Made by a program: the position numbers and the translations under genes
Notes under the pieces: model-generated
Told to the model about the DNA's origin: nothing
The model's database searches: none
Seen by the model: only the letters and a program-made list of their open reading frames with translations
Shown here: in pieces, positions 15,972-16,419 of the stretch
How the letters are laid out: the number at the start of each line of letters is the position of its first letter
Numbering within the stretch: the stretch's first letter is position 1
Virus record (IMG/VR): IMGVR_UViG_638341086_000001
Location: 1-28,152 of that record
Length of the DNA stretch: 28,152 nt
DNA from: a virus
Lineage: Duplodnaviria; Heunggongvirae; Uroviricota; Caudoviricetes
Reading direction: 5' to 3' (one strand)

Positions 15972-15972
15972 T

Positions 15973-16012
15973 AAAAAAAGAGCCAGCGACTGACCTGAAA
16001 GAAGACGCTGGC
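15973..16012 (-). terminator. Possible minus-strand intrinsic terminator (hairpin followed by T7 on the minus strand)
   Basis: Stem GCCAGCG/CGCTGGC (15982-15988 / 16006-16012) with A7 at 15973-15979 on plus. Confidence 0.35.
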
Positions 16013-16120
16013 TAAAAGGCCTTATATGTTTGTAGAGACTTATTTTTCACAGACAGCAATGATGCCTGTCAATATATTATCAATATGCGGATTGTTTCAG
16101 TTACAGATGCTTTATTAAGG

Positions 16121-16162
16121 AAAAAAACAGCCAGCACTGACTTTCGGTGGAGAGGTGCTGGC
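16121..16162 (-). terminator. Possible minus-strand intrinsic terminator, second copy
   Basis: Stem GCCAGCAC/GTGCTGGC (16130-16137 / 16155-16162) with A7 at 16121-16127 on plus. Confidence 0.35.
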
Positions 16163-16338
16163 TCAGAAGGATAGTTGGATTTCACATGATACTTATGCCT
16201 GGCGGTATATTTTCTGACAGACAGTGACGGGTGTTGTCAAGATATTGTGTCATTTATAACCTGAATCAGGGGGTGGCCGGAATGTTATCTGGCATTTTTA
16301 GCAGAGCCTGAATGCCATAATCACGGCTCCCGGAGTTG

Positions 16339-16376
16339 GCCGTCAGTGGGTGACACTGGCGGCTTTTTTGTTTTTC
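16339..16376 (+). terminator. Rho-independent terminator immediately upstream of the holin gene
   Basis: 10-bp stem GCCGTCAGTG/CACTGGCGGC (one G-T pair), loop GGTGA, then TTTTTTGTTTTTC. Confidence 0.6.
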
Positions 16377-16419
16377 TTTACTTTCATTTTCTGTCGGCGG
16401 TGACGGAGACATACATCAG

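Follow-up and report, generated by a model that had tools for sequence, protein, structure and literature searches.

A probable tandem pair of diverged PasA-family small RNA genes, with a separate sense-strand terminator, between nanS-p and the holin gene of a lambdoid prophage

Results

The nanS-p/holin spacer and its surroundings

The window, that is, the whole stretch of 28,152 nucleotides analysed here, is the late region of a lambdoid prophage of the EHEC type. The spacer between nanS-p and the holin gene measures 448 bp (15972-16419) and holds two diverged direct repeats, hereafter unit 1 (esterase-proximal) and unit 2 (holin-proximal), together with a strong plus-strand terminator. A DUF1327 protein, a lysozyme and Rz are also encoded in the window, and the remaining features that matter here are as follows.

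12582-12971: Q antiterminator
13029-13049, 13879-13900 and 13998-14019, plus strand: strong sense-strand terminator-like sites between Q and nanS-p
13721-13911, plus strand: STnc100 (Rfam), about 2 kb upstream of the 448-bp spacer
13912-13973, minus strand: AgvB (Rfam), a perfect match that abuts STnc100
14121-15971, plus strand: nanS-p, sialate O-acetylesterase, an accessory ("moron") gene in the late operon (Pfam DUF1737, SASA and DUF6645), convergent with both sRNA genes
15973-16013, minus strand: unit 1 terminator, stem AGCCAGCG/CGCUGGCU at 15981-16013, then C and U7 at 15973-15980 (fold; phage 434 annotation)
15973-16037, minus strand: putative unit 1 RNA, a paralogue in the PasA/PasC family, about 64 nt if its own promoter is used (Hfq-CRAC overlap)
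16038-16078, minus strand: unit 1 promoter-like block, -35 TTGACA at 16072-16067, TG at 16051-16050, -10 GAAAAA at 16048-16043 (same geometry as the PasA promoter)
16121-16163, minus strand: unit 2 terminator, stem AGCCAGCAC/GUGCUGGCU at 16129-16163, then G and U7 at 16121-16128 (fold, covariation)
16121-16205, minus strand: unit 2 RNA, PasA homologue of about 85 nt (probe match, mapped E2348/69 ends, locus identity)
16206-16246, minus strand: predicted unit 2 promoter, -35 TTGACA at 16240-16235, TG at 16219-16218, -10 CAGAAA at 16216-16211, A/T-rich upstream of the -35 (sequence reading)
16247-16337: conserved spacer from the PasA promoter to the plus-strand terminator, with a long imperfect plus-strand hairpin (fold z = -2.5)
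16338-16376, plus strand: sense-strand intrinsic terminator, stem 16338-16364 of 11 pairs (7 GC), then TTTTTTGTTTTT to 16376 (fold; phage 434 annotation)
16420-16626, plus strand: holin, class II (phage 21 S-type), first gene of the lysis cassette (Pfam Phage_holin_2_1, E = 1e-32)

An Rfam scan of 12500-17500 in E-value mode gave no match within 15972-16419, the only families recognized being STnc100 and AgvB/AsxR at 13721-13973; the weak leader-like matches that the same scan also produced were due to terminators. The covariance models of STnc100 (RF02076) and AgvB/AsxR (RF02702/RF02703) were likewise unmatched in 15972-16419, and a tRNA/tmRNA scan of the window found none.

The two repeat units

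The preliminary description, which was made from the sequence alone, had recorded two imperfect direct repeats, each with A7 and a GC hairpin that would act as a terminator on the minus strand, and both are indeed present. The A7 run and the hairpin lie at 15973-15979 and 15981-16013 (AGCCAGCG / CGCTGGCT) in unit 1 and at 16121-16127 and 16129-16163 (AGCCAGCAC / GTGCTGGCT) in unit 2, and read on the minus strand each becomes a hairpin followed by U7. Its CAGACAG...TGTCAA(T/G)ATATT segments were found as well, at 16050-16078 and 16218-16246, and their minus-strand reading is AATAT(A/C)TTGACA-N-CTGTCTGT. Across all 28 kb, the 30-nt pattern AATATNTTGACAN5CNTNNCTGTCTGT is found at these two minus-strand sites and nowhere else; the expectation from shuffled sequences is 0.

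Local alignment of 15972-16120 with 16121-16290 gave z = 7.5-9 under three scoring schemes, and the score was reached by 0 of 1000 dinucleotide shuffles. The full-length repeat emerges under milder scoring, while a strict-penalty local alignment recovers the A7 and stem block only (score 32, shuffle maximum 30). Aligned pairwise over 162 gapped columns, the units are about 64% identical, and the mean column identity in a MAFFT alignment is 74%. They are spaced 148 nt from terminator to terminator and 168 nt from promoter block to promoter block, the difference being accounted for by an indel of 15-20 nt in the RNA body.

Each unit, read on the minus strand, consists of a perfect TTGACA -35, an 18-nt spacer with TG at its end, a weak, A-rich, TG-extended -10 (3 of 6 consensus positions in either unit), a body of 64-85 nt, and a GC hairpin with U7. 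A consensus promoter scan missed these minus-strand promoters, neither -10 having a T in its sixth position, and offered weaker alternatives instead; among them was plus-strand CAGACA-17-TATATT, which we read as probably the minus-strand block seen from the other strand. Both unit promoters are probably functional. Across 24 variants of the terminator stems, 96% of cells were paired (20-50% when the partners were slid), with compensatory CG<->UA and GC<->AU changes. On the sense strand neither unit hairpin is followed by a U-run, and hence neither is a sense-strand terminator.

The differences among variants are concentrated in the 5' 40 nt of the RNA and the 3' ends are conserved; the pattern with which the units were collected fixes the -35 and CTGTCTGT, so that conservation at those positions cannot be used as evidence. 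Judged from the repeat score, the uniqueness of the promoter block, the stem covariation, and the variable 5' part with its conserved 3' end, the two units are copies of one sRNA gene.

Distribution and alleles

The repeats proved to be conserved in related phages, being found in H-19B, 434 and Stx1a phages. The 448-bp spacer as a whole is 98.9% identical to that of phage H-19B, 95.8% to those of Stx1a phages and 95.5% to that of E2348/69 prophage PP2, it is 100% identical in O157:H7 genomes, and the same type is present in phage 434. Among 5426 complete E. coli genomes it occurs in 698 (~13%), at a median of five places per genome.

We assembled 121 unit-containing loci from a pattern scan of viral contigs and from fetched genome loci; 71 of them carry two units and 50 carry one, with 40 distinct unit sequences altogether. 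An independent sample, anchored on the esterase C-terminus, comprised 76 informative loci, 43 with two units, 19-20 with one, and 13 with an unrelated short spacer in which a plus-strand terminator still precedes the holin. The last are of the Sakai Sp10 type; Sp10 itself carries AgvB1, and its spacer is a different one of 149 bp without units, so that the window does not represent Sp10.

One-unit alleles are mosaics that occupy the same site as two-unit alleles. In the PasC-type allele (E2348/69 PP5; also O121), which adjoins the esterase stop, the promoter and 5' body are of the unit 2 type and the stem is of the unit 1 type; another one-unit type carries AGCCAGUAC/GUACUGGCU, and one tandem locus (L078) has a unit 1 with the PasC-type loop. 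Unequal recombination would seem to have produced the one-unit and two-unit alleles. The copies on plasmids belong to prophage fragments bordered by IS elements, and in some of these unit 1 occurs alone. Furthermore, a scan of one genome per species with a 21-base promoter pattern returned only E. albertii, with a tandem pair, and a single site in Neisseria mucosa; the latter was rejected as a family member, the rest of the unit being missing and the number of such sites being about that expected by chance.

Unit 2 corresponds to PasA

PasA is an abundant, trans-acting, Hfq-dependent sRNA of EPEC and EHEC prophages. In EPEC it accumulates in an Hfq-dependent manner as an RNA of ~80-85 nt, by Northern blot and RIL-seq (PMC8550237), and in E2348/69 it is mapped to the minus strand with a start at 743499, a major end at 743415 (85 nt) and a minor end at 743264 (236 nt) (Table S6, PMC8550237). 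The published Northern probe, GCCAGCACTGACTTTCGGTGGAGAG (PMC8550237), matches the window exactly at 16130-16154 on the plus strand, so the RNA belongs to the minus strand; transferred by the alignment, the three mapped ends fall at 16205, 16121 and 15970. The first is 6-7 nt past the predicted -10, the expected start being 16204-16205. In addition, the 5' arm of the unit 2 terminator carries the published PasA seed GCCAGCACCU (supplementary Fig. S5, PMC8550237), of which 16154-16163 on the plus strand is the reverse complement. The probe match and the mapped ends thus identify unit 2, at the level of sequence, as PasA, whose minor isoform continues to the unit 1 terminator.

The PasA gene of E2348/69 PP2 has the same locus order (esterase, PasA, holin), the same strand, and an identical terminator and seed, and differs from the window copy in the 5' 40 nt (16160-16205), for which the window has an alternative sequence. 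PasA and PasA-2 are described as differing in their 5' part (Zhu, Shabalina & Storz 2026 preprint), and from that description, in whose text the variant sequence is not printed, we infer that the window copy is the EHEC-prevalent PasA-2. The whole PasA-type RNA folds no better than shuffled sequences (z -1.1), the terminator alone being structured. It has also been suggested that a longer transcript may be cleaved to yield the mature 5' end of PasA (Zhu, Shabalina & Storz 2026 preprint).

Unit 1 and the Hfq peaks EcOnc51 and EcOnc52

The unit 1 terminator begins 2 nt past the nanS-p stop codon, and the whole unit 1 RNA folds at -16.5 kcal/mol (z -3.7). Its promoter geometry predicts a start near 16036-16037, and the 236-nt isoform made by PasA read-through also has this stretch at its 3' end (minor end 743264, window 15970). 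Unit 1 aligns over its full length with both PasA and PasC and has diverged from them: its seed and stem region reads GCCAGCGUC, and the PasA seed GCCAGCACCU is absent from unit 1, which has in its place GCCAGCGUCU, the PasC-type stem.

Two Hfq-CRAC peaks of E. coli O157 Sakai, EcOnc51 in Sp12 (2237479-2237555, plus strand) and EcOnc52 in Sp4 (1181998-1182075, minus strand), both in the older Sakai coordinates, are listed as predicted sRNAs only, without Northern blot (PMC4104026), and have been cited as EHEC homologues of PasA (PMC8550237). In NC_002695.2, copies of unit 1 identical to that of the window lie at 2237616-2237684 (Sp12) and 1182009-1182077 (Sp4); Sp12 also has PasA, at 2237449-2237535; Sp4 lacks it and has IS629 inserted ~20 bp upstream of the unit 1 -35. 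We calibrated the coordinate shift between the two Sakai versions on known sRNAs: it is ~0 at Sp4, from STnc100 against EcOnc05/08, and +137 to +146 at 1.94 Mb, from AgvB1, and the homologous pair EcOnc10/11, with a summed shift of 275, gives +129 to +138 at Sp12. After this calibration (~+137 for EcOnc51) both peaks overlie unit 1 and not the 85-nt PasA. Each peak spans 77-78 nt, with its 5' edge no more than ~2 nt from where unit 1 is predicted to start.

With that shift applied, the Hfq peaks and unit 1 coincide; as several Sakai prophages carry an identical unit 1, these CRAC reads map to more than one place. In RIL-seq of EPEC, the unit 1 interval (pasA.E2348C_0688.IGR) appears as RNA2, the sRNA-like partner, in all of its chimeric fragments (PMC8550237). 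The unit 1 promoter block is retained in the IS-truncated Sp4 copy and in the plasmid copies, and unit 1 probably has a transcription start of its own.

The plus-strand terminator

The strong T-run terminator noticed earlier before the holin stands up well: its 11-pair stem (16338-16364) is followed by the U-run TTTTTTGTTTT, in keeping with a rho-independent terminator (a GC-rich stem of at least 5 bp plus a U-run), the predicted fold has -22.3 kcal/mol and z = -4.8, and 43 nt separate the end of the element from the holin ATG at 16420. Within the 448-bp spacer it is, along with a weak site at 16276-16293, the only one that faces late transcription. The terminator and the 90 bp to its left are conserved in one-unit alleles, two-unit alleles and phage 434, and the stretch 16247-16337 is 97-98% identical in phage 434, H-19B and Stx1a phages. 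Elements composed of a hairpin and a U-run, unrelated in sequence, also stand 39-55 nt before the holin in Sakai Sp10 and in phage 21, the hairpin of the latter having -25.5 kcal/mol and z -5.1.

Q antitermination renders RNA polymerase resistant to downstream intrinsic terminators. On the simplest reading, 16338-16376 would insulate the lysis cassette against transcription lacking antitermination, and Q-modified polymerase would read through.

Discussion

The 448-bp spacer very probably contains two tandem, diverged sRNA genes on the minus strand, PasA and a paralogue, together with a separate sense terminator. Much of this is already known, in the form of PasA, PasC, EcOnc51/52 and the terminators annotated in phage 434; what is new is a minor point, namely that the locus, as its sequence reads, is a tandem pair of paralogues. 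The curated phage 434 record (OL657226.1) has the same three terminators at homologous positions and on the same strands, two on the minus strand after the esterase and one on the plus strand before the holin, and labels them as terminators only, with no sRNA genes annotated.

The units share with the PasA/PasC family both their 3' stem-loop with poly-U and their place: they are flanked by the SASA esterase gene and the holin/lysozyme operon and run antisense to the late genes. The pasA and pasC genes have been placed between a sialic acid esterase and the holin/lysozyme operon, with a common ancestor inferred (Zhu, Shabalina & Storz 2026 preprint). PasC of E2348/69 PP5, like unit 1, stands directly past the esterase stop and has the stem AGCCAGCG/CGCUGGCU; unlike the window locus, it is a one-unit allele with a unit 2-type promoter and 5' body and a different loop, and the PasC probe finds no match in the window. 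EcOnc51/52 (Sakai Sp12 and Sp4) coincide with unit 1 copies identical to that of the window. AgvB and AsxR (RF02702, RF02703) resemble the units in being short, Hfq-bound prophage sRNAs that converge on a "moron" gene of the late operon and combine a variable 5' part with a conserved 3' terminator, but neither by sequence nor in Rfam do they match 15972-16419, and the PasA seed is in an arm of the terminator and not in the 5' end. A further parallel is provided by OmrA/OmrB and PrrF1/PrrF2, which are adjacent paralogues on the same strand with conserved promoters and terminators and diverged bodies. Both members of each of these pairs are proven to be independently expressed, whereas at the window locus independent expression of unit 1 is a probable reading only. 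In the preprint, pasA copies are stated to be at least 22 kb apart and not tandem duplicates (Zhu, Shabalina & Storz 2026 preprint), which implies that the diverged neighbour, unit 1, was not recognised there as a paralogue.

Of the two origins considered in the preliminary description, it is that of small antisense RNA units which has been borne out, the units being PasA-family sRNA genes opposite the late operon, even if the PasA-family sRNAs of the literature are trans-acting and Hfq-bound rather than dedicated cis-antisense RNAs. The other, in which the units are leftovers of a pR'/tR' module (late promoter and terminator) from an ancestor of the phage-21/82 type, we regard as extremely improbable. 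It is true that the plus-strand reading of each unit, CAGACA-17-(T/G)ATATT, is promoter-like (9 of 12 for unit 1), and that phage 21 likewise has a hairpin with a U-run before S21. The unit terminators face the wrong way for a late module, nevertheless, the -35 elements are strong on the minus strand, and the experimentally validated RNA is that of the minus strand. The alignment that had been put forward as a check, with the Q-S region of phage 21, left the similarity to pR'-QBE-tR'-tRNA-S21 at background; neither the phage 21 pR'-QBE-tR' region nor the STnc100 region of the window aligned above shuffles, and the best case (phage 21, plus strand), which was long and gappy, was reached by 2 of 300 shuffles. 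In blastn, 16243-16419 matched 434, 2B8, YYZ-2008, H-19B and Stx1a phages and did not match phage 21, which was in the database. Membership in the class of pR'-QBE-pause-tR' modules was rejected on the same grounds: no sense-strand homology of promoter, QBE or terminator was seen, the unit terminators are antisense, and blast gave no match.

Another view is that PasA (unit 2) alone is a gene, with unit 1 a decayed duplicate kept as a back-up terminator that catches PasA read-through before it enters nanS-p in antisense; we hold this to be unlikely, though less so than the other alternatives. A single 5' end (743499) with a major and a minor 3' end is listed for PasA (PMC8550237), the unit 2 terminator has a loop of 17 nt and may leak, the body of unit 1 carries the deletion of 15-20 nt, and the EcOnc51/52 reads could derive from the 3' end of the long PasA isoform rather than from the unit 1 promoter. 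Against this, neither the perfect TTGACA nor the shared TG/-10 geometry has been lost from unit 1, the EcOnc51/52 peaks have their 5' edge ~2 nt from the predicted unit 1 start and not further upstream, and unit 1 with its promoter persists on plasmids and where IS629 has removed unit 2 (Sp4). Considerably less probable is a role centred on the late transcript, in which the hairpins stabilise or process the 3' end of nanS-p mRNA and the sRNAs act mainly in cis, antisense to the nanS-p 3'UTR and the holin leader, e.g., in tuning lysis timing. A rightward transcript from nanS-p to 16376 would be fully complementary to both sRNAs, RIL-seq recovered a plus-strand RNA from the spacer (743494-743512, window 16200-16218), and the PasA targets include the 3' end of the esterase gene (PMC8550237); yet that plus-strand RNA was recorded with PasB and not with PasA, and the RNAs that RIL-seq pairs with PasA come for the most part from unlinked genes, core and accessory (PMC8550237).

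If the locus is a tandem pair of PasA-family genes, both would be transcribed leftwards, converging on nanS-p, and in each the GC hairpin with U7 would terminate transcription and provide the Hfq-binding 3' end. PasA, the holin-proximal copy, has its seed in its own terminator, within the 5' arm; the copy next to the esterase would be the paralogue with the stem and seed GCCAGCGUC that corresponds to EcOnc51/52 of Sakai O157, and its terminator would also catch PasA read-through, giving the 236-nt isoform. The earlier statement that the lysis genes need read-through of several terminators holds in part: it is supported by 16338-16376 and by the three sites upstream, whereas the unit hairpins, having no U-run on the sense strand, should leave rightward late transcription unterminated. 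Polymerase not modified by Q, e.g., that entering from nanS-p, would be stopped at 16338-16376, and in this way the pre-holin terminator may prevent expression of the lysis cassette in the lysogen and yet let polymerase with the Q modification pass. A terminator stands 40-55 nt before an S21-type holin in three unrelated sequences (the window spacer, Sakai Sp10 and phage 21), a recurrence which suggests that pinholin genes generally have to be shielded from transcription without the Q modification.

More tentatively, at somewhat under an even chance, the tandem pair may be a true two-gene array, in which unit 1 is an independently transcribed, third class of paralogue with its own seed GCCAGCGUC, the alleles interconvert by unequal recombination between the units, and cis action on the late transcript is possible. 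Unit 1 would then have escaped notice, its divergence being too great for censuses that rely on BLAST, and unequal recombination would reshuffle promoters, 5' bodies and seed/terminator modules among the PasC, AGCCAGUAC and two-unit alleles. Both RNAs would be perfectly complementary to a read-through transcript from nanS-p to the holin, and might for that reason also act in cis on the late transcript.

For annotation, the repeats that precede the lysis cassette in many prophages (Stx1-type, H-19B/434-type and cryptic ones of EHEC/EPEC) are to be read as sRNA genes, of a family already tied to Hfq networks that touch virulence genes, and not as relics of a late promoter. Counts of the PasA family per genome are probably too low, since the esterase-proximal paralogue goes uncounted, and the family would, after all, include a tandem pair.

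Small RNA genes and terminators around nanS-p

Upstream of the esterase gene nanS-p, the window carries a second convergent sRNA pair, formed by STnc100 and AgvB, whose ends (13911 on the plus strand and 13912 on the minus strand) abut exactly in the Rfam scan. The AsxR model of Rfam also scores at 13721-13973, but under its own gathering threshold. From Q to nanS-p there are also three sense-strand hairpins, and the one at 13029-13049, located 58 nt past the Q stop codon, is a candidate for tR'.

Features between Q and nanS-p (window coordinates)
13721-13911, plus strand, STnc100 (Rfam match, 144.7 bits)
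13912-13973, minus strand, AgvB anti-GcvB sRNA, identical to the Rfam consensus
13029-13049, plus strand, strong terminator-like hairpin
13879-13900, plus strand, strong terminator-like hairpin
13998-14019, plus strand, strong terminator-like hairpin

A further terminator, CTGCTGTGACTCCAACACGGCAG followed by U7, was located on the minus strand (18779-18809), 3' of a ylcI/ynfO-like ORF (18941-19168). With the calibrated offset between older Sakai positions and NC_002695.2 applied, the same sequence lies under EcOnc10/11/12 of Sakai, which are very strong Hfq-CRAC peaks (Tree et al. 2014, PMC4104026), and this minus-strand stretch probably specifies an Hfq-binding RNA derived from the 3' end.

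The spacer between the esterase and holin genes

Within the spacer, a conserved 90-bp segment (16247-16337), flanked by the PasA promoter on one side and the plus-strand terminator on the other, folds on the plus strand into a long imperfect hairpin (fold z -2.5). A plus-strand spacer RNA has been found in chimeras with PasB by RIL-seq in EPEC (PMC8550237), and position mapping places it at the equivalent of window 16200-16218. In unrelated sequences, a strong hairpin with a U-run likewise stands 39-55 nt before the class II holin start; that of phage 21 is without annotation in the phage record.

Hairpins before class II holins (coordinates of the comparison loci)
L132 6070-6098, Sakai Sp10, strong hairpin and U-run
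L217 755-815, phage 21, strong hairpin and U-run

The esterase-holin spacer is a recurrent IS insertion target, having received IS629/IS1203, ISEc13, IS3 family and ISEc20 elements, and the insertions in Sakai Sp4 (L009 2631), E2348/69 PP5 (L007 3080) and the plasmid locus L004 cut the lysis genes off from the sRNA units. On EHEC plasmids of ~90-100 kb, IS-flanked prophage fragments (L003 2913-3151; L004 3001-3244) retain either unit 1 alone, beside what is left of the nanS-p 3' end, or portions of the two units. In total, the spacer occurs at 108 places on plasmids.

In the 3'-terminal part of the nanS-p reading frame, CUGGUGCUGGA (15940-15951) matches the PasA RIL-seq target motif and is complementary to the PasA seed over 8 nt. 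The PasA targets listed for EPEC include the esterase genes of PP2 and PP5 (PMC8550237). The nanS-p 3' end and PasA could constitute a local regulatory loop.
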